Shown: positions 7,834 to 62,042 of the stretch, one piece after another
Position numbering within the stretch: position 1 is the stretch's first letter
Layout of the letters: each line of letters opens with the position of its first letter
From: an uncultured Methylomirabilota bacterium
Lineage (GTDB): Bacteria; Methylomirabilota; Methylomirabilia; Methylomirabilales; 2-02-FULL-66-22
Assembly: GCA_963705305.1 (NCBI GenBank)
Contig: OY970067.1
Coordinates: 5,504,001-5,568,000, forward strand
Length of the DNA stretch: 64,000 bases
Direction: 5' to 3'
Translations under genes and position numbers: made by a program
The notes under the pieces: generated by a model
The model's input: only the letters and a program-made list of their open reading frames with translations
What the model was told of the DNA's origin: nothing
The model's database searches: none

Positions 7834-10526
<2,693 letters not shown>

Positions 10527-10643
10527 GGCTTCCCCCGCCTCCTCTGTGCGCCCTGTCCCGGACGCGACTTCACGATGGATGTGTCGCCGGCGCCCCGGTC
10601 CACTCCGGTCCACGGCGGCCCCGAGATCATAATCCAGCAGGCG

Positions 10644-12086
10644 TCATCGAACAAGCCGGCGCGCGGCGCCTCCCGCGTCATCCCCCGCCGTGACGGCCGT
10701 CCCTTCCGCGGAGAGAAACCGCGCCACGCGGGCTTCCACCTCAGGGTGGTCCACGTACCCGTTGTGGCGAGAGCAGACCGTCAGTGTGCTCAGCCCCGGC
10801 GAGGCCGGCAGGTCCAGGGCGCTGGCAGACGTCACGATCCCGTCGCCCGGAGCCACGGCGCGCGCATAGAATGGATCGCCTGCCTGGTTGCGGGCGGGGA
10901 ACTTCAGCCCCCCATCCGTCACGACCGCGCCCACCGGGGTCGGCCAGCAGTCGCTCCCCACCAGGAGACGCGGAACGGCCTCCTCCGCCGCATCCGGGCC
11001 GGCAAGGGCCTGCTGGAGCTTCCCAGCCCGCTCCAGCATGGCCGACGCAAAGCGGACCTGGTCGGGTCCGTCATCCTCCCCGGGGAGCCAGCCCCGATCG
11101 ATCCAGGTCCGAAGCTGGAACAGCGGCACGCGCGCGGCCCGGCCATCCGTCACCAGGACGGAGACCTGCCCGTCCGGTCCGGCGAACGGCAGCAGCTCCC
11201 ACGCCATCGGCATGGAGAAGACCGCTCGCCGCAGGCCCAGCTCGAAGATGCCGAACAGCCGGAAATCCTCGGTCAGCGCCTGGAGGGCTAGAGCGGATCC
11301 GCGATTGGGCGCCCCCAGGGTAACCAATCCCGCCACCGATCGGGCACCCGGCTGATTGAGGGAGGCGGCCGGCGCCCCCTGAGCCAGCGGACAGCTCCGC
11401 CCGTCCAGCACATCCTCTCCGCCGTAGCGCAGGTAGTATCGGGCCACCAGCCCTCCCAGGCTGTGACCGACCACCAGCACGCGGGGCGCCCCGGCCGTCT
11501 CGCGGATGCGGGCGATCTCCTCCGCGACCACACAGGCGCTCGCCGCCAGGTCGCGCCGCCAGTCGTAGTACAGCACGAACAGCGAGGCCGGGCGGGCCCG
11601 GTCGTGACGCTCTGCCTCGGGGTTTTCCGGATAGTCCTTGTCCCGGGGATTGTCCGGATTGCCGCGAACGTATCCCTGGTCGCGGATGAGCCGGTTGATG
11701 AGGGGCTGAAGTCCGCGGACGTTGGTCCCGCGCAGCGCGGCATTCAGACGCGGGGGGATGCCCAGCGGGTCCGCCCCACCCGCGGGAAATCGCGGATCAC
11801 CGAGATGCGCCAGCGCCTCGCCGTCCGTCCGGAGCGCGAGCGCCGAGAAGGATGCGAACGAGCCGCCGCGCAGGACATGGCCGACCTCGCGATTCACGCC
11901 GGGCAGCAGGACGATCGGCGCTCGTTTCAGGCCCGGCGGCCATTGCGCCTCCCGTTCCGGCCCCTGGCCCGGCCGATGGCCGCAGCCGCAGAAGAGCGCC
12001 ACGAGGCCGAGGACGGCCAGGAATCCTCCCGCGCGTGCCCCCTGCCGGAAGCGGCACCCAGCCTCCCGTTCAGTCCCTCCCCGCAT
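10644..12086 (-). CDS. alpha/beta hydrolase (LCAT/lipase-like), probable lipoprotein
   Basis: 'YYDWRR', GHSLGG nucleophile elbow, 'GAPNRGS', 'PGDGIV'; hydrophobic signal ending in Cys. Confidence 0.8.
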   Translation of the reverse strand: MRGGTEREAGCRFRQGARAGGFLAVLGLVALFCGCGHRPGQGPEREAQWPPGLKRAPIVLLPGVNREVGHVLRGGSFASFSALALRTDGEALAHLGDPRFPAGGADPLGIPPRLNAALRGTNVRGLQPLINRLIRDQGYVRGNPDNPRDKDYPENPEAERHDRARPASLFVLYYDWRRDLAASACVVAEEIARIRETAGAPRVLVVGHSLGGLVARYYLRYGGEDVLDGRSCPLAQGAPAASLNQPGARSVAGLVTLGAPNRGSALALQALTEDFRLFGIFELGLRRAVFSMPMAWELLPFAGPDGQVSVLVTDGRAARVPLFQLRTWIDRGWLPGEDDGPDQVRFASAMLERAGKLQQALAGPDAAEEAVPRLLVGSDCWPTPVGAVVTDGGLKFPARNQAGDPFYARAVAPGDGIVTSASALDLPASPGLSTLTVCSRHNGYVDHPEVEARVARFLSAEGTAVTAGDDAGGAARRLVR

Positions 12087-12733: not shown

Positions 12734-12891
12734 TAGCAGGCTGCTGAAAAGGCCCATCTGCGGCGTTGGCGCGCTCGCGTGGCGCTGCGACGTACGAGCC
12801 GAGTACGTCTCGCACCGCCCATCGCGCGCCGCCTTGCATCCGGACCTTTTTGAGCAGCCTGGGCGAAAACGGGTAGTTCAGCAGCCTGCTA
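12734..12891 (+). repeat. MITE-like dispersed repeat, copy 3 (minimal form)
   Basis: TAGCAGGCTGCTGAA ... TTCAGCAGCCTGCTA terminal inverted repeats; overlaps the methyltransferase stop codon. Confidence 0.85.
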
Positions 12892-13641
12892 CGCCGCCGC
12901 GACCGCGACCAGCCGCCGCGCCAACCGGTCGTAGGGCGCTCCGTCCAGGCTTCCGTAGAGCGTGACGCGCACGAAGCCGGCTGCCCGCAGCGCCGCCCGG
13001 AGCTCTGCGCCCGAATAGAGGCGCAGCCCGAACGTGTAGACGGTGGACCGGCCGCCGCGGGTCAGGGTCCACCGGTTCTCAACCCAGCTCCCCCCGGCAC
13101 AGACCGTTCGCTCTTCGAGCAGGGTGGCCGAGCCGTCCGGGAGCCGATGCTGCTCTCGCGGGCGGAAGTCGCGGCGGAACAGCTCCTTCCCCAGCATCTC
13201 CATCAGCAGCAGTCCCCCCGGCTTCAGGCAGGCGCGCAGGTTGCGGAGCACCTGGAGGTCCTCCTCGGAATCCTCGAAGTACCCGAACGAGGTGAAGAGG
13301 TTCAGGGCCAGGTCGAACGCGGCCGGCCGCATGAAGCGACGCATGTCCTCCAGGACGAATTCGACCCGGAGTCCTAGGGCGGCGGCACGGGCTCGGGCGG
13401 CCTCCAGGTAGCGTGCCGTCCGGTCCACTCCGGTGACCCGGAAGCCGCGGCGGGCCATCTCCAGCGCGTGCCTGCCCTGCCCGCAGCACAGATCGAGCAC
13501 GGAGGCGCCGGGCGACGGGGCGAGCAGGCGGAGGAACTGCTCTACCTCGTTCACCGTGACCTCAGGCGGACGGTGGCACGCGAAGAGAAACGGCTCCACG
13601 GCCTCCCACAAGCCCTCATCCTCGTACCAGCGTCTTGCCAC
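12889..13641 (-). CDS. class I SAM-dependent methyltransferase
   Basis: 'VLDLCCGQGRH', 'NLFTSFGYF', 'LKPGG'; GTG start after GGAGG. Confidence 0.9.
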   Translation of the reverse strand: MARRWYEDEGLWEAVEPFLFACHRPPEVTVNEVEQFLRLLAPSPGASVLDLCCGQGRHALEMARRGFRVTGVDRTARYLEAARARAAALGLRVEFVLEDMRRFMRPAAFDLALNLFTSFGYFEDSEEDLQVLRNLRACLKPGGLLLMEMLGKELFRRDFRPREQHRLPDGSATLLEERTVCAGGSWVENRWTLTRGGRSTVYTFGLRLYSGAELRAALRAAGFVRVTLYGSLDGAPYDRLARRLVAVAAA

Positions 13642-13804
13642 GTCTCGACCTCCCCGTCCCGATGGATAGGTCTTTACGCCCCCCCCACCCAGAGTGTATT
13701 TTAGCTCGCTATACGCAGGGTGATCATCCGTCATCCGCCGCGGTCCCCGGAGGGTGTATGATTGGGATTGCCTTCTCGAATCGCCGCAGTGTGCTCCTAC
13801 GTTG

Positions 13805-14058
13805 TCAGGATGCTGAAGAACTCACTTTGCGCCAGGCCGCTCAAAAAGGTCCAGATGTCCCTCGACTTCGCTCGGGACCGTGAGCCTGTCGAACGGCAAG
13901 CCGGCGTCACCCACCCTTCGGGATGGGTACCCGGGGCGGGGCACCCGCCACAGGCGGGTCAAGGCGTACTTCCGGTACGCCGCAGCGAGTGCCCGAGCGC
14001 ACGGGGCACCCATCCGAAGGATGGGTCTCGGCAGATGGGCCTTTTTCAGCAGCCTGCC
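13805..14058 (-). repeat. MITE-like dispersed repeat, copy 4 (carries a nested 39-bp palindromic insert)
   Basis: Closely similar to copy 2 plus an extra segment at 13858-13896. Confidence 0.8.
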
Positions 14059-31655: not shown

Positions 31656-33053
31656 ATGGGCTGGTTGTGGCTGCTCCTGTGCTGCTACGGGGTGGGAATG
31701 CTGTACGTCGCCCCCCGCTCCTCCGACATCAAGGGCTTTTTCTGGGGATACGACCGCCAGGGCCGGGAGGCGAAAACCTGGATGCTGACCGGCAGCATCG
31801 TGATGGCATGGATCTTCGCCAAGTCGGTGACGAACGCCGCCAATCTGGGCGCGGCCTTTGGCGTGGTGGGCGGTCTGGCGTATGCCGCCTATTATCTCTC
31901 CATCCCGGTGGCAGGCTTCACCATTGCCTCGATCCGGAAGCGGCACGGCGTCGGCAGCCTGGCGGAATTCTTGATCCTGAAGTACGGCCGGACGGCCACC
32001 ATGGCGTTTTTGGTCGTGATCTTCATCCGCCTGTTCAACGAGGTGTGGAGCAACACGGCCGTCGTCGGGTCGTATTTCGGCGAGCAGGGTTCGCTTTCCT
32101 ATTACGCCGCCGCTTTCATCTTCACCGGCTTCACTCTCCTGTACTGCCTCAAGGGCGGACTGCGCAGCTCCATCTTCACCGACGTGATCCAGTTCTTCCT
32201 GTTCGGATTCTTCGTGTTCTTGGTGCTGGGCATGGTGCTTCCGCATAGCGGTTTGAAGCCCATTCTCTCGGCGGGCCGCTTCACCCTGGCGGGCGGAGTG
32301 GACTTGCTTCTGGTTGCCCTGCTGCAATGCCTGAGCTACCCCTTCCACGATCCGGTGCTCACCGACCGCGGTTTCCTCACCGAGCGAAAGGCGATGCAGC
32401 GGGCGTTCGTGCTGGCCGGCATGGTCGGCTTCGGGTTCATCTTTCTCTTCAGCTGGACCGGGATCTACGTCTACCTGAACGGTCTCCCCTTTTCCGACGA
32501 CGCCCCACGCGCGGTCGCGTCCGCATTCGGTTTCGCCTCGCTCTTCAGCATGAATCTCATCATGCTCTCCTCGGCGGGCTCCACCCTGGACTCAACGTTC
32601 TCCTCCTTCTCCAAGTGGGGGGCGCTGGATGTGCCCCGGGCCTTTGCCAAAGAGCCGCGGAACCTCCCGCTGGGCCGGGTCATCATGGCCGGCATGGCGA
32701 TCCTCGGAAATCTGCCCCTGTTCGCAGGGGCCTCGATCCTGAAGGCCACCACCGTCTCGGGCACCATGGTGATGGGTCTGGCCCCCGTTTTTCTGTTCCA
32801 CGCCATGAAGGGGGTGCCCCGCATCTCCTTCCACCTGGCATTCTGGCCGGGCATCTTCCTGGGAACCCTGTACGCTTTTTGGCCGGTCCCGGCCTCCCTG
32901 ACTATCGGCGCGGGGACGTACGCCGGCCTGCTGGGAATCAACCTCTACGGCCTGATGTTGTGCACGGCCCTGTACCTGCTGCCCGTGGCGGTCGCTGGAC
33001 TCCTGCCCAGGCGGCTGGCCCCGGACGTCTCGCTCGAGGGGAGCCCGCGATGA
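31656..33053 (+). CDS. sodium:solute symporter family transporter
   Basis: Many TM helices; 'WIFAKSVTNAANLG', 'KGGLRSSIFTD', 'AGSTLDS'. Confidence 0.88.
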   Translation: MGWLWLLLCCYGVGMLYVAPRSSDIKGFFWGYDRQGREAKTWMLTGSIVMAWIFAKSVTNAANLGAAFGVVGGLAYAAYYLSIPVAGFTIASIRKRHGVGSLAEFLILKYGRTATMAFLVVIFIRLFNEVWSNTAVVGSYFGEQGSLSYYAAAFIFTGFTLLYCLKGGLRSSIFTDVIQFFLFGFFVFLVLGMVLPHSGLKPILSAGRFTLAGGVDLLLVALLQCLSYPFHDPVLTDRGFLTERKAMQRAFVLAGMVGFGFIFLFSWTGIYVYLNGLPFSDDAPRAVASAFGFASLFSMNLIMLSSAGSTLDSTFSSFSKWGALDVPRAFAKEPRNLPLGRVIMAGMAILGNLPLFAGASILKATTVSGTMVMGLAPVFLFHAMKGVPRISFHLAFWPGIFLGTLYAFWPVPASLTIGAGTYAGLLGINLYGLMLCTALYLLPVAVAGLLPRRLAPDVSLEGSPR

Positions 33054-33907
33054 GCGTCCCCCTGGCCCCGTTCTCCCATCTGGCCAGCCTGTGGATCCAG
33101 GTCACGGGGACGTGGTGCAATCTCCAGTGCACGCACTGTTTCAACGCCAGCGGCCCCCGGGACCCATGGCTCAAGAGCCTGGACGCGGGGACGGTCAAGC
33201 GCTCCATTCAGGAGGCGGAGGAGCTGGGGGTCAAGGAGATCTATTTCACAGGCGGGGAGCCCTTCCTGCACCGGGACATCCTGGAGCTGCTGCAGGCGTC
33301 GCTGGAGGCGGCGCCGACCACGGTCCTGACCAACGGGACCCGGATCACCCCACGGGTGGCCGACGCGCTGGCGGCGATGGCAGAAGAGTCTCCCTACTCC
33401 CTGGAGATCCGGGTGAGCGTGGACGCCATCGACCCCGAGACAAACGACCGGATCCGGGGAAAGGGGGCCCTGGCCAAGGCCGTCCGGGCGATGCGCCTGC
33501 TGGATGCCCGCGGGCTGCTTCCCATCCTCACGGCCACCGAGATCCTCGACCGTACAGATGCCGAGAGAGACGGGATGTACGATCGCTTCCGGGATTTTCT
33601 GCTGGCGCAGGGGATCCGAAAGCCCCGGGTCAAGATCATCCCGGTCTTCCCCATCGGCCGCACGGCCAAAGCCGGCGCCCCCTTGCTCACTGAAGAGATG
33701 CTGCGGGGCTTCGACTTTTCCCTGCTCCAGTGCACGGAGACGCGGGTCGTGGCGGAGGGGGGAGTGTACGCCTGCCCCATCCTGGCCGGACTGAAGGGCG
33801 CCCGGCTCTCGGAGGGCAGCCTGCGGGAGTCGTTCGGTCCCTGCCGCCTTTACCACGCCTCCTGCGCCGTCTGCTACGAGACGGGGATGACCTGCAAGAA
33901 CTTCTGA
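33050..33907 (+). CDS. radical SAM protein with C-terminal Cys cluster
   Basis: CxxxCxxC 'CNLQCTHC', 'FTGGEPF', 'LTNG'; C-terminal C..C..C..CxxC..C; ATGA overlap with the symporter. Confidence 0.92.
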   Translation: MSVPLAPFSHLASLWIQVTGTWCNLQCTHCFNASGPRDPWLKSLDAGTVKRSIQEAEELGVKEIYFTGGEPFLHRDILELLQASLEAAPTTVLTNGTRITPRVADALAAMAEESPYSLEIRVSVDAIDPETNDRIRGKGALAKAVRAMRLLDARGLLPILTATEILDRTDAERDGMYDRFRDFLLAQGIRKPRVKIIPVFPIGRTAKAGAPLLTEEMLRGFDFSLLQCTETRVVAEGGVYACPILAGLKGARLSEGSLRESFGPCRLYHASCAVCYETGMTCKNF

Positions 33908-33920
33908 GGAGATCGATCGA

Positions 33921-34745
33921 GTGGACGCAGCCTCCGCTGGAATCCAGTCGCACGAGAGCCCCCGCTATCGGCGGATCGCCGTCCTCGGCGGGGTGTACAA
34001 CAACGCACCGGCACTCGAGGCGGCGCTCGCCGATGCCGGACGCCGGGGTGCGGAGGCGATCTTCTGCCTGGGAGACCTGGGAGGATTCGGCCCCCATCCG
34101 GACCGGGTGTTTCCCCTCCTGCGCGACGCGGGCGTCCTGACCATCCAGGGGAACTATGACGCATCGCTGGCCGGCGGCAAGGATGATTGCGGCTGCGGCT
34201 ATACCGATCCGCGCGACAATCGCTTCGCCCGGATCAGCTACGAGTATACCTTCCGCAAGACCTCGGCGGCGCACAAGGCGTGGCTAGGGACGCTGCCGGG
34301 ACAGCGCCGCATCCGGCTGGGCCGGCTGGAGGTCCTCATGTGCCACGGCTCCCCCCGCATGGTGAACGAGTTCCTCTGGGAGTCGGCGACGCCCAACGGC
34401 CTCCTGGCGAAGTTCCTGCGAGACTTCCGGGCTGATGTCATCCTGTGCACCCACACCGGCATCAAGTGGCACCGCGTCCTGGCCGGGAATAAGCATTTGG
34501 TGAACGTGGGGGTCATCGGCCGTCCGGAGAACGACGGGACGACCAATGTGTGGTATGCCCTGCTGACGGCGGAAGATGAGCTCACGGTGGAGTTCATCCC
34601 CGTCCGCTTCGACCACGAGCGGCTGGCCCGGGAGATGGAGCTGGAAGGGCTGCCCGGGGAATTCGTCGAGACCATCCGCACGGGATGGTGGACGACCTGC
34701 ATGGAGATCCTTCCCGCCAAGGAGCGGGCGCGGGGCAAGTACTGA
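33921..34745 (+). CDS. calcineurin-like metallophosphoesterase with CGC motif
   Basis: 'CLGDLGGFGP', 'QGNYD', 'HGSP', 'CTHTG', 'DDCGCGY'. Confidence 0.88.
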   Translation: MDAASAGIQSHESPRYRRIAVLGGVYNNAPALEAALADAGRRGAEAIFCLGDLGGFGPHPDRVFPLLRDAGVLTIQGNYDASLAGGKDDCGCGYTDPRDNRFARISYEYTFRKTSAAHKAWLGTLPGQRRIRLGRLEVLMCHGSPRMVNEFLWESATPNGLLAKFLRDFRADVILCTHTGIKWHRVLAGNKHLVNVGVIGRPENDGTTNVWYALLTAEDELTVEFIPVRFDHERLAREMELEGLPGEFVETIRTGWWTTCMEILPAKERARGKY

Positions 34746-34754
34746 GGGGAGACG

Positions 34755-35561
34755 ATGCGCGCGCTGCGGGAGCCGGCCAACCGGTTGCTGGTTCAACTCT
34801 TCAAGCATGCGCCCCGGCTCGCCTCCGTATGGGCGAGACGGTATCGCGCCGTGGAGGCCGCCGGGATTCCCTGGACCCCCGTACGAAAGCCGCTGGGGCA
34901 GTCAACGGTGGCCCTGCTCACCACGGCCGGTGTCCACCTGCGGAGCCAGGCGCCGTTCGTCATGGACGATCCGGACGGGGACCCGAGCTTCCGGATCATC
35001 CCGGTCGAGGCGGCGAAGGACCAGCTGGTCATCACGCACAAGTACTACGACCATACGGCGGCGGACCGGGACATCAACGTGGTCCTCCCGCTGGACCGGA
35101 TGCGCGAGCTGCAGGCCGCAGGGCGGATCGGCACGCTGGCTCCGTTGGCCTACGGCTTCATGGGGCACATCGACGGCCCGCACCTCCGCACGCTTCTGGA
35201 GGTGTCGGCACCCGAAGTGGCCCGCCGCCTCCGGCAGGACGGGGCGGAGGCGGCGGTTCTCACCCCCGCCTGAGGCCTCTGCAACCAGACCGTGGGTCTG
35301 GTCCAGCGCGCCATCGAGGCGGGGGGCATCCCCACCATCGGGATCAGCCTCCTGAAGGAGATCACCGAGAAGGTCCGGCCGCCGCGGGCCCTGTATCTGC
35401 GATACCCTTTCGGGCATCCCCTGGGAGAGGCGCACCGCCTCGCCCAGCAGCGCGCAATTCTGTTGGCGGCTCTCCATGGGCTGGAGACGATCACCACCCC
35501 CGGAACGATCCTGGAGCCCGGTTTTCGGTGGCGCCGGACGCGTTTCGAGGGAGAGCCGTGA
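34755..35561 (+). CDS. GrdB/PrdB-like selenoprotein (Sec at TGA 35271-35273)
   Basis: 'ALLTTAGVH', 'DINVVLPLDR', then 'VLTPA-U-GLCNQTVGLVQRAIEAGGIPT' continuing in frame; SECIS-like hairpin follows. Confidence 0.88.
35274..35312 (+). promoter_or_regulatory. putative bacterial SECIS element
   Basis: ACCAGACC-GTG-GGTCTGGT hairpin (35284-35302) starting 11 nt after the UGA. Confidence 0.7.
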
Positions 35562-35592
35562 GGTTGCCGCTCGTCCGGCCCCGCGGAGGCCT

Positions 35593-36297
35593 ATGATGCC
35601 GAGAATCTCCTCGAACAAAGCGAAGCTCCTCCTCTGGGCGCTGGCGATCGTCGCCGTGCTGGTCCTGGGCCGGGAGGTGAATGCTCCTGTATTGCTCAAG
35701 ACCGCCTTGGACTGGATCCAGGGGCTGGGGGGCTGGGGGGCGGCCATCTTTGTCGTCCTCTACATCGTGGCTACCGTCTGCTTCCTCCCCGGCTCCATTC
35801 TGACCCTGGGCGCCGGCGTGGTGTACGGGGTGGCCCAGGGGGCGATCCTGGTCTCCCTGTCGGCGACCCTGGGGGCTACCGCCGCCTTCTTCGTCGGCCG
35901 CTATGTCGCCAGGGGCTGGGTGGTCGGCCAGATCGAGCGGAGCGCCGCCTTCCGGGCCATTGACGACGCGGTCGGTCGCGAGGGGTGGAAGATCGTAGGG
36001 CTGACCCGCCTCTCCCCGGTCTTTCCATTCAACTTGCTCAACTACGCCTTCGGGGTGACGCGGGTGAGACCGCGGGACTATATCCTGGCGTCCTGGATCG
36101 GCATGATCCCGGGAACGCTCATGTACGTGTACCTGGGCTCCCTCGCGGGCAGCCTGGCCACGCTGGGAGCCGGCCGGCAGGCCCGGACGCCGACCGAGTG
36201 GGCGCTGTACGGAACCGGGCTCGTCGCCACCGTGGCGGTGACGCTGTATGTCACCCGAATCGCTCGAGCGGCGCTGAAAAAGCGAATCGCCGACTGA
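35593..36297 (+). CDS. TVP38/TMEM64 (DedA/VTT domain) membrane protein
   Basis: 'LPGSILTLGAG', 'RLSPVFPFNLLNYAFG', 'IGMIPGT'. Confidence 0.92.
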   Translation: MMPRISSNKAKLLLWALAIVAVLVLGREVNAPVLLKTALDWIQGLGGWGAAIFVVLYIVATVCFLPGSILTLGAGVVYGVAQGAILVSLSATLGATAAFFVGRYVARGWVVGQIERSAAFRAIDDAVGREGWKIVGLTRLSPVFPFNLLNYAFGVTRVRPRDYILASWIGMIPGTLMYVYLGSLAGSLATLGAGRQARTPTEWALYGTGLVATVAVTLYVTRIARAALKKRIAD

Positions 36298-37853
36298 TGC
36301 GGGAGGGAGATGTCGTGTTGCGGACCCTCGAGCATACCCCGGAAGGATTTGTCCTTGAGCCCTGGGATGAGCACAACCAGGCGCTGCTGCACAACGTCCA
36401 CCCCGCCGACTGGGTCAACCCGGAGCCCGCCGGCCGGTACAACCTGGTGGTGATCGGCGCCGGCACAGCCGGCCTGGTGAGCGCGGTGGGGGCCGCGGGG
36501 CTCGGGGCCAAGGTGGCTCTGGTGGAGCGGGAGCTGATGGGTGGCGACTGCCTGAACGTCGGCTGCGTCCCCTCCAAGGCGCTGATCCGCGCGGCGCGGG
36601 CCTGGGCCGATGTCCGGGACGCCGGGGAGTTCGGGGTGATGGTCCCGCCGGGAGCCCGGGTGGACTTTCCGGCCGTCACAGAGCGGATGCGGCGGCTGCG
36701 GGCGCGAATCAGTCGGACCGACTCGGCCCGGCGGTACCGGGAGCTGGGCGTGGACGTGTTCCTGGGGGCGGGACGTTTCGCCGGACCGGACACGGTCGAG
36801 GTGGCGGACAAGATGCTGCGCTTCCGGAAGGCCGTCATCGCCACGGGGGCCCGGGCCTTCGCACCCCCGATCCCCGGCCTGGCGGAGGCCGGTTACCTGA
36901 CCAACGAGAGCGTGTTTTCCCTGTGCGAGCTGCCCCGTCGTCTCGCAGTCATCGGGGCCGGCCCGATCGGCTGCGAGCTGTCGCAGGTCTTCGCCCGGTT
37001 CGGGAGCCAGGTGTACCTGATCGAGGCCACGCACGGCATTCTGCCCAATGAGGACCGCGATGCGGCGGAGATCGTTTGCCGCTCCCTGCTGCGCGACGGC
37101 ATCACGATCCTGTGCTGCGGCGCCGACCTGAAGGTCGGCAGGGAGCACGGGGGCAAGCGCCTGTCGGTCGACTCCCACGGACAGCATTACGACCTCAGCG
37201 TGGACGAGATCCTGGTCGGCGTGGGGCGACAACCCAACGTCGATGGGCTGAACCTCGAGGCGGTCGGCGTCGCCTTCGACAAGACCGGGGTGACCGTCAC
37301 TGATCGGCTGCGAACGACCAATCCCCGCATCTACGCCGCCGGGGATGTCTGCTCCCGTTATAAGTTCACGCACAACTCGGACTTCCAGGCCCGCATCGTC
37401 ATCCAGAACGCCCTGTTCCTCGGGCGGGCCCGGGCCAGCGCCCTGAAGATCCCGTGGTGCACCTACACCGACCCCGAGATCGCTCACGTCGGCCTCTCCG
37501 AGGACGAGGCCAAAGGGCGCGGACTCCGCGTCCGGACGTTCCTCCAGACCTTCGAGGACGTGGACCGCGCCGTGTTGGACGGGGAAGCGGAAGGATTCGC
37601 CAAGGTGCACGTCCGGGAGGGCACGGACACGATCCTGGGCGCCACCATCGTGGCGCGCCACGCCGGCGAGATGCTCCCGGAGCTTACCCTTGCCATGACC
37701 AGCCGGATCGGCCTGGGCGCGCTGGCCCGGACGATCCATACCTACCCGACCCAGGCCGAGGCGATCCGTAAGCTGGGGGACGCCTACAACCGCACCCGGC
37801 TGACCCCCTTCGTGAAGGGGCTCTTCCGCAGGTGGCTGGCCTGGACGCGGTAG
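36297..37853 (+). CDS. FAD-dependent pyridine nucleotide-disulfide oxidoreductase (MerA/Lpd-like)
   Basis: GAGTAG, 'GGDCLNVGCVPSK', GAGPIG, 'HTYPT'; no HMA domain and no C-terminal CC. Confidence 0.9.
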   Translation: MREGDVVLRTLEHTPEGFVLEPWDEHNQALLHNVHPADWVNPEPAGRYNLVVIGAGTAGLVSAVGAAGLGAKVALVERELMGGDCLNVGCVPSKALIRAARAWADVRDAGEFGVMVPPGARVDFPAVTERMRRLRARISRTDSARRYRELGVDVFLGAGRFAGPDTVEVADKMLRFRKAVIATGARAFAPPIPGLAEAGYLTNESVFSLCELPRRLAVIGAGPIGCELSQVFARFGSQVYLIEATHGILPNEDRDAAEIVCRSLLRDGITILCCGADLKVGREHGGKRLSVDSHGQHYDLSVDEILVGVGRQPNVDGLNLEAVGVAFDKTGVTVTDRLRTTNPRIYAAGDVCSRYKFTHNSDFQARIVIQNALFLGRARASALKIPWCTYTDPEIAHVGLSEDEAKGRGLRVRTFLQTFEDVDRAVLDGEAEGFAKVHVREGTDTILGATIVARHAGEMLPELTLAMTSRIGLGALARTIHTYPTQAEAIRKLGDAYNRTRLTPFVKGLFRRWLAWTR

Positions 37854-37909
37854 GATCGAGGGCGCGGCGCCGCGCGGAGCCAGGAGGCGCCTGAGGGCGA
37901 GGTGGGAGC

Positions 37910-38644
37910 GTGAGCATACCGATGCTGAGTGTCATCGTCCCCGTCCTGAACGAGGCGGAGAATATCCCCCGGCTGCTCTCGGCCCTCCAAGAGGCATGCC
38001 CGCAGGCCGAGGCGATCGTGGTCGACGGGGGAAGCCAGGACGGGACGCGGGAGGCGGTCCGCCGATTCTCCGGCGTGCGCCTGATCCTGAGCCGGCAGGG
38101 CCGGGCGCACCAGATGAATGCCGGCGCCGCCGAGGCCCGCGGGCGGATCCTGCTCTTTCTCCATGCCGACACCTGGCTTCCCCTCGGCGCCGCCGAGGCC
38201 GTTCAGGAGGCCTGCCGGAACCCATTGGTGGTGGGGGGGCGCTTTGACGTCCGCTTCGACAGTCCGCGGCCGGCCTTCCGTGTCATCGCGGCGTTCATGA
38301 ACATTCGCTCCCGTGTGAGCGGCATCTTCACCGGGGATCAGGCCATCTTCGTCCGGCGCGAGGCCTTCGAGGCGCTGGGCGGCTTTCCCGAGATTCCGCT
38401 GATGGAGGACGTGGAGTTCTCGCGCCGCCTGAAGCGGGCGGGACAACTCGCTTGCCTCCAGGTGGAGGCGACCACGTCCGCCAGGAAGTGGGAGCGGGAG
38501 GGGGTGGGTCGAACCGCCCTCCTGATGTGGAGCCTGCGCCTGCTGCATGCGCTCGGTGTCTCTCCGGAGCGCCTGCACCGCTGGTACTATCCCGACCTCC
38601 GACCGCCCGAGACGACCGAAGGGCCGTCGCCCCCGGGGGGCTGA
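37910..38644 (+). CDS. family 2 glycosyltransferase, TIGR04283-like (rSAM/selenodomain-associated)
   Basis: 'SVIVPVLNE', 'VDGGSQD', 'GRAHQMNAGA', 'LFLHADT', 'GDQAIF', 'PLMEDV', 'TSARKW'. Confidence 0.9.
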   Translation: MSIPMLSVIVPVLNEAENIPRLLSALQEACPQAEAIVVDGGSQDGTREAVRRFSGVRLILSRQGRAHQMNAGAAEARGRILLFLHADTWLPLGAAEAVQEACRNPLVVGGRFDVRFDSPRPAFRVIAAFMNIRSRVSGIFTGDQAIFVRREAFEALGGFPEIPLMEDVEFSRRLKRAGQLACLQVEATTSARKWEREGVGRTALLMWSLRLLHALGVSPERLHRWYYPDLRPPETTEGPSPPGG

Positions 38645-41700: not shown

Positions 41701-42402
41701 TCAGGAGAACAGCGCCAGGGGATCCTCGACCTTCAGGGGATCCTGAACATAGAAGCCCTGCCCGAATTTGGCGCCGACCTGCGCCCCCAGGTAGCTGGCG
41801 AAGGCCTCCAGCCTGGTGGGGAAGTGCCTCGGCCGATCCGGTCGTTCGAACTGCGACTTGTGGTTGGCCAGCGCCTGGATCGCCTGGGGAAACTCGTCGT
41901 CCACCGGCACGATGAAGGTGGGCTTCATGAAAGGGGGCAGAAAGTAGTAGAAGATCTTCTTGACGGCGTGCGCGGCTCCCTCGGCCGGGTACTTCTCCAG
42001 GTGGGCGAAGTTCGTTCCATGGGTGACCACGTGGCCGCAGGTGATGTGATCCGCGTGACCGCGCCCCCGCCCAGGCTCCAGGCCGTAGTAGGGCGCCAGG
42101 ACGATGTCGGGCCGGTACTTCCGCACCAGCGAGGCCACAGCCCTCCGGTTGGCCTGGGAATCCTCCAGGCGCGTATCGCCCATATCGAGGATCTCGAGGG
42201 CGTCCAGCTTGAGGTCGCGAGCGGCTCGTTCGGTCTCCTGGCGTCGGATCTCGGGCGTGCCGCTGCCCATGTCCCCCTCGGTCAGAAGAACCATGCCGGT
42301 CCGGTAGCCTCGATTCTTCATCTTCAACAGGAACGCCCCCGTCCCGATCTCGGCATCATCCGGGTGCGGGCCGAAGGTGAGAAAATGCAGTCGCTCCGTC
42401 AT
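41701..42402 (-). CDS. bshB1: PIG-L family deacetylase, BshB1-like
   Basis: 'PHPDDAE', 'LTEGDMGSGTPEIRRQE', 'HADH', 'HKSQF'. Confidence 0.7.
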   Translation of the reverse strand: MTERLHFLTFGPHPDDAEIGTGAFLLKMKNRGYRTGMVLLTEGDMGSGTPEIRRQETERAARDLKLDALEILDMGDTRLEDSQANRRAVASLVRKYRPDIVLAPYYGLEPGRGRGHADHITCGHVVTHGTNFAHLEKYPAEGAAHAVKKIFYYFLPPFMKPTFIVPVDDEFPQAIQALANHKSQFERPDRPRHFPTRLEAFASYLGAQVGAKFGQGFYVQDPLKVEDPLALFS

Positions 42403-42600
42403 GCCGCATCCTTTCTCCCGATCCACACCATGGACCGGGTCGTCGCAACCTCGTCGCCCGTCTCGAGTCCCTCCCCGGGCCGGTCGTCACCGACGGTTCC
42501 GTTCCCCGCAGCCTGCCGGTCGGGCGCTGAATCCGGCGCCGCCGGGGAGGAAGGCCTGGGAAACACAGATTAGGAGGGCAGGCAGAAAAAGTCAATCCGC

Positions 42601-60521: not shown

Positions 60522-62042
60522 CCCTAATCTCCGGCTAAGCGGTGGCCAGCCGGGCGATCTTGCGCCGCGCCCGGACGAGCAAGGCGTGCTGCAGGGCGCC
60601 CGAGAGCCGCAAGAGCGTCCGTCGGGCATGCGCGACGACCTTCCCGACGGTGTTGAACAGCAGGAACCGGAGACGCTTCGGCCGGGCGGTCCGGAGATCT
60701 CCGGGTAAGGTCAACCGCTTGAGCGCGGTGAGCAGGTTGTAGGTGAGCACGTTCAGCCGGAACCAGGCGGCGTTCGCCCCGAACTTCCCACTGGGCAGCG
60801 CGGCGGCCGCCAGCTCGGTCTTGAGGACGTGATGGGTGTGCTCGATGGTCCCTGCTTTCTCCCGGTGCCACCGGAGGATCGTGAGCCCATCCTCCGGCCG
60901 ATTGGTGACCACGGCGAAGTACTGCACGCTACTCCCGTCGGCGAAGAGGCTCCCCTGGCGTCGCTGGATACGCACCGCGAGGTAGCGGCGAACGCACGGC
61001 CGCGCCTTCCGGTGATCGCCATCCTCGGGGACGTAGGGGACTTCGGCCCAGGCCCGGATCGCCTCGGGCTCCTCCCGCTCGAGCTGCCAGGCGGCCGCGG
61101 GGAGGCGCCGGATCTCGGCCTGGAGCTGCGCGGACATATCGGCGCTAATCGCGTAGGCGATTTTCTTCTCCTCGCACCAGCGGAGGACCTCCGTCTCGTA
61201 GAGGGCGCTGTCGGCCCGCAGGGAGATGCGGTCCACGCCCTGGGGCAAGTTGGCCACCGCCTGTTCGAGGACGCGCACGTTGCCGCACCCGGCGGGCACC
61301 TGGCCATCGCGGAACTGGTCGTGCACGATGACATCGTGCTCGGCCCAGAGGACCACGACGGGCTGGTAGCCCCGGGTCCCGTCGTAGGCCACGGTCGCCG
61401 CGTCCTTGTGGCTCTCGACGAGCGTCGCGTCCACATCCAGGGTGGCCGTCGCCGCCCGGGCCCCGCGCTGGACGCCCGCGACCAGCGTCCGGTTCGCCTG
61501 TCCGAGGCCCGCCAAGGGGGCGGACTCCAGGGGGACCGTGGCCGCGGGCCCGGCCACCCAGAGCGGCCCGTCCTCCACGTGGAAGGCCTCGAGGAAGTCC
61601 CGGACCGTGGTCGCGGCCGGCAGGGGGTAGCCGAGCAGCGTGGCCAGGGCCTGATCCTCCCGGAGCGTCGTGAGGTCCTGGCAGCGGTCCCCGCCGCTCG
61701 TCCACAACGCGACGAGACTCTCCACGAGCTGCGAGGGGGGTAATCCGCGCTGCCGCTGCTTGACCGCAACGTGGGTGTCGACGGCCTGGGCCACCCCGAG
61801 CTGGCGGAACAGCTCGATCACGAGCGGGACCCCGGCCCGGCCCGTGACCAGCGTGGGGTCGATCGCGTCATCGATTCTCGAACGGCAACCGGGGCGAGGT
61901 GTCGGGCATCGCTCTCCTCCTTGTGGTGTTTGCACCCACTGGGTGAAACCAAGCAAGGCCGATGCCAACCCCGCGGGCCGCGCGCACTGCGGGCCGCTGC
62001 GTGATTCGCGATCCCCCTCAACTTCTTAGCCGGAGATTAGGG
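60522..62042 (-). mobile_element. IS1380-family insertion sequence (1521 bp)
   Basis: Perfect 18-bp TIRs CCCTAATCTCCGGCTAAG (60522-60539 / 62025-62042); 5-bp flanking duplication CCGGA; DDE transposase. Confidence 0.92.
60535..61909 (-). pseudogene. IS1380-family transposase, 1-nt frameshift at codon ~12
   Basis: 'TLDVDAT', 'GYQP', 'LRADSA', 'E..H..LK', 'FGANAAW'; RBS AAGGAGG + ATG gives MPDTSPRLPFE, out of frame with IDDAIDP. Confidence 0.8.

Follow-up and report, generated by a model that had tools for sequence, protein, structure and literature searches.

A window of 64,000 nucleotides from the genome of an uncultured Methylomirabilota bacterium (assembly GCA_963705305.1, contig OY970067.1, positions 5,504,001 to 5,568,000 of the forward strand), the whole stretch of DNA analysed here, contains an operon of seven genes in which an enzyme of the radical S-adenosylmethionine (SAM) type and a metallophosphoesterase-fold protein are encoded side by side, followed by a selenoprotein. 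The window has a G+C content of ∼68% and its source is a single 5.65-Mb contig. Checking of the open reading frames (ORFs) confirmed seven genes in the same direction on the + strand between positions 31656 and 38644, with both overlapping junctions named in a preliminary description of this DNA, and all seven ORFs show elevated third-position G+C, as real genes do. The operon opens with a sodium/solute symporter (SSS)-like carrier of 465 residues (31656-33053), the gene for which is joined by an ATGA overlap at 33050-33053 to that of the radical SAM enzyme (285 residues, 33050-33907; hereafter rSAM). The metallophosphoesterase-fold protein (274 residues, GTG start; hereafter MPE) is encoded at 33921-34745 and the PrdB-like selenoprotein (268 residues) at 34755-35562. 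A TVP38/DedA-family membrane protein of 234 residues (35593-36297) then shares a TGATG overlap, at 36295-36299, with an FAD-dependent pyridine-nucleotide disulfide oxidoreductase of 518 residues (36297-37853), and the last gene encodes a TIGR04283-family glycosyltransferase of family 2 (GT2; 244 residues, 37910-38644).

A radical SAM enzyme paired with a metallophosphoesterase fold

The rSAM protein matches PF04055 with 84.9 bits. Its sequence combines a CxxxCxxC motif with conserved C-terminal auxiliary cysteines, the combination by which SPASM/twitch enzymes are recognised, and eight cysteines (C23, C27, C30, C228, C242, C272, C275 and C282) were invariant in 16 of 16 sequences, the last five bearing out the extra cysteine cluster that had been noticed earlier. 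The protein lies under every curated NCBIfam cut-off, scoring 114 bits with the Rv1681 family (cut-off 380), 90 bits with the mycofactocin maturase MftC, its second-best match (cut-off 265), and 52 bits with ArsS (TIGR04167, cut-off 300), the last match being confined to model positions 7-147. With this score and without the DUF3641 domain of ArsS it is not a canonical ArsS, as was already suspected. The ORFs that were scanned within the cluster and on either side of it gave no match to a mycofactocin precursor or chaperone family. The structural model of rSAM had a mean predicted local distance difference test score (pLDDT) of 65.7, with the cluster-binding parts below 50, and its nearest solved folds were SkfB, BlsE, anSME and SuiB. 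A search by sequence returned no close structure, the best being SkfB at 47.6 bits. The protein belongs to an uncharacterised family for which the model suggests just a broad SPASM/twitch placement.

The MPE protein matches PF12850 with 37.6 bits (cut-off 27) and matched no NCBIfam family. Its AlphaFold model (pLDDT 85.4) gave a Foldseek probability of 1.00, with SapH (3qfm), 3rqz, 1nnw and 2gju as best matches, at TM-scores of 0.65-0.79 and identities of 23-27%. The protein thus shares its fold with the small YfcE/SapH-type metallophosphoesterases. As a yardstick we take the full set of metal motifs in such enzymes to be DxH, GD, GNH, H and GHxH, and MPE does not have the complete set: in 30 aligned sequences motif I is GGVYNN, with the Asp and His gone, and motif III is GNY, while GD is kept and D52, N78, H142 and H178 are invariant. 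The same holds for cysteines C90, C92 and C260, and at least 90% of sequences retain C49 and C141; the CGC motif pointed out in the preliminary description corresponds to C90-G-C92 and was present in all 30 aligned homologues. MPE differs from the YfcE/SapH-type enzymes in an extra invariant insert (DCxCGYTDPRDN), a C-terminal GWWTTC, cysteines beside motifs II and IV, and in the constant pairing or fusion of its family with a radical SAM enzyme. In the two Pyrococcus proteins 1nnw and 2gju, its nearest sequence relatives with structures, motif I also lacks DxH, but the cysteines of MPE are absent. Clustered at 50%, the MPE family comprises 348 representatives with E-values no worse than 1e-30, and it is more strongly conserved than rSAM, with identities of 56-78% against 39-76%.

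Homologous loci were surveyed with one genome per species; there were at least 592 matches, and the best 80 of these are the loci described here. Among the groups that appear in the titles of their records are Methylomirabilota/Rokubacteria, Entotheonella, Acidobacteriota, Eisenbacteria, Gemmatimonadota, Planctomycetota, KSB1, Calditrichia, Ignavibacteria and Verrucomicrobia. Neighbouring genes were placed in the loci by tblastn with the window proteins. An MPE gene lies no more than 300 nt downstream of rSAM in 67 of the 80 loci, downstream after an inserted gene of 0.8-1.5 kb in six, and elsewhere in the locus in one. It was not found by tblastn in the remaining six, in four of which the contig ends within 500 nt. 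Near the pair, a PrdB-like gene was placed in three loci, TVP38 in 11, the reductase in six and the GT2 in 12. The complete seven-gene set occurred in two loci only (L013 and L015), with a third (L016) having the set minus the carrier, and the seven genes do not form one conserved unit. The conserved core is the pair of rSAM and MPE.

Gene fusions join the two proteins in both orders, as rSAM-MPE (P0244, P0245 and P0250) and as MPE-rSAM (P0263 and P0387). Twelve long rSAM homologues comprised seven rSAM-methyltransferase fusions, three rSAM-MPE fusions, one rSAM-flavoprotein fusion and one protein with the rSAM domain alone. Furthermore, structure prediction of the rSAM-MPE complex gave an ipSAE score of 0.92, compared with 0.00 for the best of three controls. 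Of 157 solved complexes, 116 attain the pass mark used, as do two of 215 mismatched pairs, counts that are rough as our own alignments were used. Prediction runs share at least 93% of their contacts with a partner pLDDT of at least 92, and the predicted interface involves the helix-to-strand loops and the C-terminal tail of rSAM. No similar complex turned up among solved structures. The prediction supports binding without demonstrating it, and rSAM and MPE probably act as a complex. A search of open-access papers and bioRxiv, with subscription journals outside its scope, found no literature on the pair or on an operon of this type.

The PrdB-like selenoprotein and the remaining operon genes

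The fourth gene contains an in-frame TGA at 35271-35273, read through as selenocysteine (Sec) at residue 173 within the motif U-G-L-C. The TGA and the frame downstream of it are kept in eight of eight orthologues, and a hairpin resembling a selenocysteine insertion sequence stands directly 3' of the UGA (35268-35320, + strand, apical stem 35286-35300). This hairpin folds with a minimum free energy of -40.8 kcal/mol (z = -3.1; one of 200 shuffles folds as well), and a consensus hairpin starts ∼13 nt after the TGA in the eight orthologues. Double changes were seen in three of its 19 pairs and the covariation term was about zero, the weak covariation being due to the coding role of the stem. The genome moreover encodes tRNA-Sec, SelB and SelD, and SelD itself carries a TGA. 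The selenoprotein is real, as had been described. Most of its database homologues are 172 residues long, the length of gene calls cut at the TGA. In a sample of 151 genomes of the window's phylum, for which profile counts were tabulated by hand, PrdB-like paralogues, short proteins that are frequently present more than once per genome, were found in 108, and an in-frame TGA is present in each match listed. Two full-length database homologues, P0005 and P0010, were considered as evidence for a Cys form and rejected, the residues at the Sec position being W and R, not Cys; the W may reflect a TGA read under another genetic code.

The selenoprotein scores 170.3 bits with the PrdB family TIGR04483 (cut-off 300), over positions 20-229 of 238, and 37.9 bits with PF07355. 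With PrdB and GrdB of the D-proline and glycine reductases it has in common the family PF07355 and a Sec in U-x-x-C, but it falls under the PrdB cut-off, its operon holds no PrdA/GrdE partner, and its neighbours are rSAM or ArsS. The operon protein has no adjacent pyruvoyl partner because the sole PF09338 (GrdE/PrdA-type) gene of the genome lies outside the window at 3.56 Mb (C1:3560897), beside a full-length GrdB. No solved structure of the PrdB/GrdB family was found. At C1:3559570-3562084, the full-length GrdB-type gene (PF07355, 379 bits) adjoins this only Gly_reductase gene of the genome, an arrangement that suggests a glycine/betaine-type reductase locus. Such loci are unusual outside fermenting anaerobes.

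The divergent carrier matches PF00474 with 31.7 bits (cut-off 22.8) over residues 36-197 only, a partial coverage, and TIGR00813 with 38.6 bits (cut-off 184). It is the least conserved member of the operon, with a homologue beside rSAM in five of the 80 loci. The TVP38 protein (PF09335, 97.6 bits) has homologues common to clusters of the ArsS type and of the rSAM/MPE type. The flavoprotein is a member of NF004991 (818 bits, cut-off 620), with the redox motif GGDCLNVGC and a C-terminus ending in RRWLAWTR. An identification as MerA was rejected on its score with TIGR02053 (373 bits, under the cut-off of 454) and its lack of a C-terminal Cys pair; the protein is MerA-like, not MerA. The GT2 had been taken for a TIGR04283-type enzyme, an assignment confirmed with the hidden Markov model at 275.5 bits (cut-off 182) over the full model (positions 1-221 of 221), and it is the sole match over cut-off to this family in the genome. 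Its second-best NCBIfam match is the mycofactocin protein MftF, at 61 bits against a cut-off of 280.

Exchange with ArsS and association with ArsM

In three related loci (L101, L102 and L104) the gene order is TVP38, ArsM-like methyltransferase, ArsS, PHO4-family carrier, PrdB-like selenoprotein, TVP38, DUF3047, TIGR04283 and MerA-like reductase. The ArsS proteins score 435-439 bits and contain PF12345 (DUF3641, 182.8 bits), for which the window rSAM has no match, and the PrdB-like selenoproteins are 62-64% identical to that of the window. Around this shared frame, the carrier, rSAM and MPE of the window take the place of the ArsM-like gene, ArsS and carrier of the relatives. With the same PrdB-like, TVP38, TIGR04283 and MerA-like genes in the ArsS clusters of its relatives, the operon belongs with the ArsS-linked set to which it had first been assigned. 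In the L101 locus the carrier (9648-10934, - strand) is of the PHO4/PiT-family phosphate type and is encoded between ArsS and the Sec protein, the SSS-like carrier of the window standing at the front. Of the 151 phylum genomes, 22 contain a close PrdB-like orthologue; its neighbour is the new rSAM in 14 of them, ArsS in six and neither of these in two (G020 and G074).

ArsS (TIGR04167), which acts with ArsM in the cyanobacterial arsenosugar pathway, and the window rSAM are both radical SAM enzymes with CxxxCxxC. Their gene partners in common are TIGR04283, TIGR04282, TVP38, the MerA-like reductase, the PrdB-like Sec protein and an ArsM-like methyltransferase. The two differ in that rSAM is 24-28% identical to ArsS over ∼140 N-terminal residues, lacks its DUF3641 C-terminal domain and would depend on a second protein, MPE.

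The phylum sample held the new rSAM in 50 of 151 genomes, TIGR04283 in 77 and ArsS in 13. TIGR04283 was present in 48 of the 50 rSAM-positive genomes versus 29 of the 101 rSAM-negative ones, and in 35 of the 50 it shared a contig with rSAM at a distance of no more than 10 kb. It is missing from two rSAM-positive genomes, G058 (unpublished, 580 contigs) and G061 (86% complete); leaving out the former gives 48 of 49, and nothing concluded here depends on the unpublished genomes. Likewise, 12 of the 13 ArsS-positive genomes have TIGR04283, which occurs with neither radical SAM type in 18. ArsS and the new rSAM were found together in one genome of the phylum only (G107), and their distributions are nearly exclusive of each other. 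Among 55 pair-bearing genomes of other phyla (assembled as five and then 50, with the completeness of metagenome-assembled genomes (MAGs) unknown, no matched same-phylum background and kinship ignored), TIGR04282 was present in 48, TIGR04283 in 43 and ArsS in one (G182), all over cut-off. In 14 control genomes each of the three was found once, all in Synechococcus elongatus. Co-occurrence with TIGR04283 and TIGR04282, by which membership of ArsS is judged, is therefore also a property of rSAM.

ArsM-family methyltransferases provide a further connection. By tblastn, an ArsM-family gene was placed within 3.3 kb of the pair on the same strand in 10 of the 80 loci, and in L046, L052, L054 and L060 such a gene lies between rSAM and MPE. 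These inserted proteins score 377-385 bits with NF040538 (cut-off 500) and 195-208 bits with NF008823 (cut-off 263). Four of four checked rSAM-methyltransferase fusions match ArsM families best (NF008823, 195-238 bits, cut-off 263), and the methyltransferase is fused to MPE in P0315 and P0351. The fused and inserted methyltransferases keep the GCG, CV(L/I)N and C(I/V)(S/A)GA cysteine motifs, which we take to bind As(III). A side observation is that many sub-cut-off ArsM-family matches in the phylum sample carry one in-frame TGA; together with the short PrdB-like proteins, they make up two selenoprotein families with an expansion in this phylum.

The window itself contains neither ArsM nor TIGR04282, as had been stated, and both are present elsewhere in the genome. 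The only ArsM over cut-off (292 bits, cut-off 263) lies at 2.20 Mb (C1:2203004-2203777; L099 6981-8306); it carries a fused C-terminal GNAT acetyltransferase, its gene follows that of a MarR-family regulator, and the methyltransferase half of P0315 is 46% identical to it. The one TIGR04282 gene, at 3.48 Mb (C1:3475099-3477934; L100 5099-7934), adjoins BshC and a GT4 (BshA-like) gene. A profile search of the genome found no ArsS. The genome thus fits the pattern of ArsM, TIGR04282 and TIGR04283 present with ArsS absent. A gene for a BshB1-like deacetylase (169 bits, cut-off 182.5) was observed in the window at 41704-42486 on the - strand, 3 kb downstream of the operon, and bacillithiol might be the thiol used by the pathway.

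Presence of ArsM was also considered as profile evidence and set aside as too common, ArsM family members being present in 114 of the 151 phylum genomes; moreover, at the threshold of that search the ArsM-like genes of the cluster type in G005 and G007 went undetected. Judged from sequence, a link of the pair to arsenic is supported by the ArsM fusions and insertions, by the exchange of the pair with ArsM-like and ArsS genes within one frame, and by the co-occurrence with TIGR04282 and TIGR04283 without ArsS. The connection with arsenic made in the preliminary description is strengthened by these fusions and insertions.

Proposed role of the pair and alternative explanations

We favour, with a confidence that is real but modest, the interpretation that the operon is an ArsS-type biosynthesis cluster for an organo-arsenical of the arsenosugar type, in which an rSAM-MPE complex would carry out the radical SAM-dependent arsenic-carbon step or an equivalent one. 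The position, and probably the role, of ArsS would then be taken by a two-protein module. From the gene content, co-occurrence, fusions, exchange with ArsS and selenoprotein that were observed, we infer the chemical steps as follows. ArsM, encoded elsewhere in the genome, would make trivalent (methyl)arsenic held on thiolates. The compact twitch/SPASM-like rSAM would form a complex with the cysteine-rich, catalytically degenerate MPE, the cysteines of which may hold the trivalent arsenic substrate or an extra cluster, and this complex would catalyse radical, SAM-dependent formation of a carbon-arsenic bond or an equivalent step. The PrdB-like Sec/Cys protein and the NF004991 flavoprotein, with its CxxxxC motif, may form a redox relay whose likely job would be to keep the arsenic species trivalent. 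TIGR04283, the distant TIGR04282 nucleotidyltransferase-like gene product and TVP38/DedA could provide the glycosyl or carrier-lipid and membrane steps, acting on a nucleotide-activated or lipid-linked intermediate, and the SSS-like carrier could transport substrate or product. To our knowledge, experiments have yet to address how arsenosugar synthesis proceeds in its later stages and what TIGR04282/04283, TVP38 and the MerA-like reductase do.

If this is correct, a two-protein stand-in for ArsS, spread over many phyla of soil and sea, would alter the genome-based prediction of organo-arsenical production: at present Methylomirabilota, Acidobacteriota, Entotheonella and Planctomycetota count as being without arsS, although they possess the remainder of the pathway. 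What is new here is the gene-by-gene exchange with ArsS around a common PrdB-like selenoprotein, the cross-phylum profile of TIGR04282/04283, a counter-example locus with both enzymes and a supported model of the complex. A large family of short PrdB-like selenoproteins would also gain a first functional context. The pair further prompts one to ask what a phosphoesterase fold that has conserved cysteines but not its metal ligands does beside a radical enzyme, and it is a clear, expressible target for testing.

Several observations weigh against this interpretation. One is the occurrence of both enzymes together. L015, from Methylomirabilota, encodes a true ArsS (12861-13961; 390.7 bits, cut-off 300) between the PrdB-like gene and TVP38, and none of the other 79 loci has ArsS together with rSAM and MPE; likewise G107 and G182 each hold ArsS and the pair in the same genome. 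Since these three carry both, ArsS and the pair may perform different steps instead of replacing one another. The gene contexts of the pair also vary. A Pyr_redox_3-type flavoprotein accompanies it in 20 of the 80 loci, and in nine loci of Acidobacteriota (L035, L036, L038, L040, L041, L045, L048, L053 and L056) a fusion protein of ∼900 residues, with AMP-binding, acyl carrier protein and PlsC-acyltransferase parts, is encoded directly upstream. In five of these nine a QueC-like gene is found downstream in the opposite orientation, a sixth QueC-like match (L077) coming from a locus without the fusion, and QueC-like, hopanoid, HD and HDAC-like genes stand near the pair in a few loci. The acyltransferase-fusion loci hint at a lipid-linked product. 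Given the co-presence of both enzymes and these other contexts, the pair may catalyse a step that is parallel, not identical, to that of ArsS, and may feed different end products in different lineages. A simple one-for-one replacement of ArsS by the pair is not proven.

Also on this side of the balance, G044, a genome of the order to which the window's organism belongs, encodes an rSAM-ArsM fusion with a PrdB-like gene and TIGR04283 after it, and a search of 14 kb there did not find MPE. This fusion, at L105 (G044:C4) 8211-10022 on the - strand, is 41% and 38% identical to the query proteins, and the same 14 kb gave no match to TVP38 or the reductase. In most of the genomes outside the phylum, TIGR04282 and TIGR04283 lie far from the pair, and their 'arsenosugar' names themselves rest on co-occurrence with ArsS. 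The ArsM-like proteins associated with the pair all lie under NCBIfam curated cut-offs, and the presence of ArsM alone is uninformative because of its frequency in the phylum. Moreover, related genomes are not independent and many are incomplete MAGs, and the arsenic chemistry and arsenic binding ascribed to these proteins are deduced from their sequences.

A more far-reaching version of the favoured interpretation concerns the known chemistry. Descriptions exist of only two routes by which radical SAM enzymes make carbon-arsenic bonds, those of ArsS and ArsL (10.1101/2024.02.01.577332). The ArsL/ArsM system of arsinothricin biosynthesis, in which a non-canonical radical SAM enzyme transfers a 3-amino-3-carboxypropyl group to arsenic, likewise couples a radical SAM enzyme to an ArsM-family methyltransferase, and NF040538, the model for the ArsM of arsinothricin, is the one with which the ArsM-like proteins of the cluster type score highest (345-385 bits, under its 500-bit cut-off). 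In contrast to this likeness, of the 62 NCBIfam families matching rSAM the top 25 include no ArsL model, and the other gene partners differ. Tentatively, the rSAM and cysteine-rich MPE-fold pair could represent a third, previously unrecognised radical SAM system for carbon-arsenic bonds after ArsS and ArsL, a widespread one with loci under at least 10 phylum-level names. It might then be the missing enzyme for organo-arsenicals of unknown biosynthesis, with the acidobacterial acyltransferase-fusion operons pointing to arsenic-containing lipids and with the PrdB-like selenoprotein and flavoprotein forming a dedicated selenium-dependent arsenic reductase. Taken as a whole we regard this proposal as speculative and rather doubtful.

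The strongest competitor to an arsenic pathway is a native substrate of another kind, such as a nucleoside, glycolipid or redox cofactor that contains selenium, tellurium or sulfur, with arsenic handling as a side activity; we consider it unlikely. The sub-cut-off scores of the ArsM-like proteins with every curated ArsM model and the association-based names of TIGR04282/04283 would suit such a substrate, as would the nearest families of rSAM (Rv1681 and MftC), the nearest relative of the GT2 (MftF), and the bacillithiol-type genes beside TIGR04282 (BshC and GT4) and 3 kb from the operon (BshB1-like). The frequency of selenoproteins in these clusters and the spread of the system through soil lineages are also consistent with it. 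Set against this are the fused and inserted methyltransferases, for which the best family matches are all ArsM types with the cysteine motifs kept. Moreover, ArsS, with which the pair is exchanged, is described as the enzyme that forms the carbon-arsenic bond in arsenosugar synthesis (10.1101/2024.02.01.577332).

The preliminary description had proposed the opposite direction, in which an organo-arsenical, or else a modified sugar or nucleoside, would be brought into the cell by way of the operon, reduced with the Sec protein recycled by the flavoprotein, and then remodelled or degraded. A carrier gene does open the operon, the ArsS clusters of its relatives have a PHO4-family carrier at the equivalent place, the PrdB and GrdB relatives of the Sec protein are reductive selenoenzymes, and no ArsM lies within the operon. 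However, the carrier accompanies the pair in only the five loci counted above, the families associated with the pair (ArsM, ArsS and TIGR04282/04283) are biosynthetic, and ArsM and TIGR04282 are supplied from elsewhere in the genome; the Pfam scan of the other ORFs of the window named no arsenic-resistance or carbon-arsenic lyase family. Import and breakdown thus appears improbable, and a biosynthetic role as an alternative to ArsS fits better. A chance juxtaposition of two unrelated modules, rSAM and MPE (possibly with the carrier and Sec protein) next to TVP38, reductase and GT2, might be read from the usual absence of TVP38, reductase and GT2 near the pair outside Methylomirabilota, but it is rejected as highly implausible because of the co-occurrence counts for TIGR04283 within the phylum (48 of 50 genomes, within 10 kb in 35) and for TIGR04283 and TIGR04282 in other phyla (43 and 48 of 55), and the overlaps at two junctions are consistent with translational coupling.

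The flanks of the operon are unrelated to it, with a Pol IV-type gene and an M23/LysM peptidase upstream on the opposite strand and a GAF/HD protein downstream. A promoter and terminator scan of the operon gave sites no more numerous than in shuffled controls. A DDE transposase gene (PF13701) lies at 60538-62025 on the - strand, 22 kb downstream of the operon.

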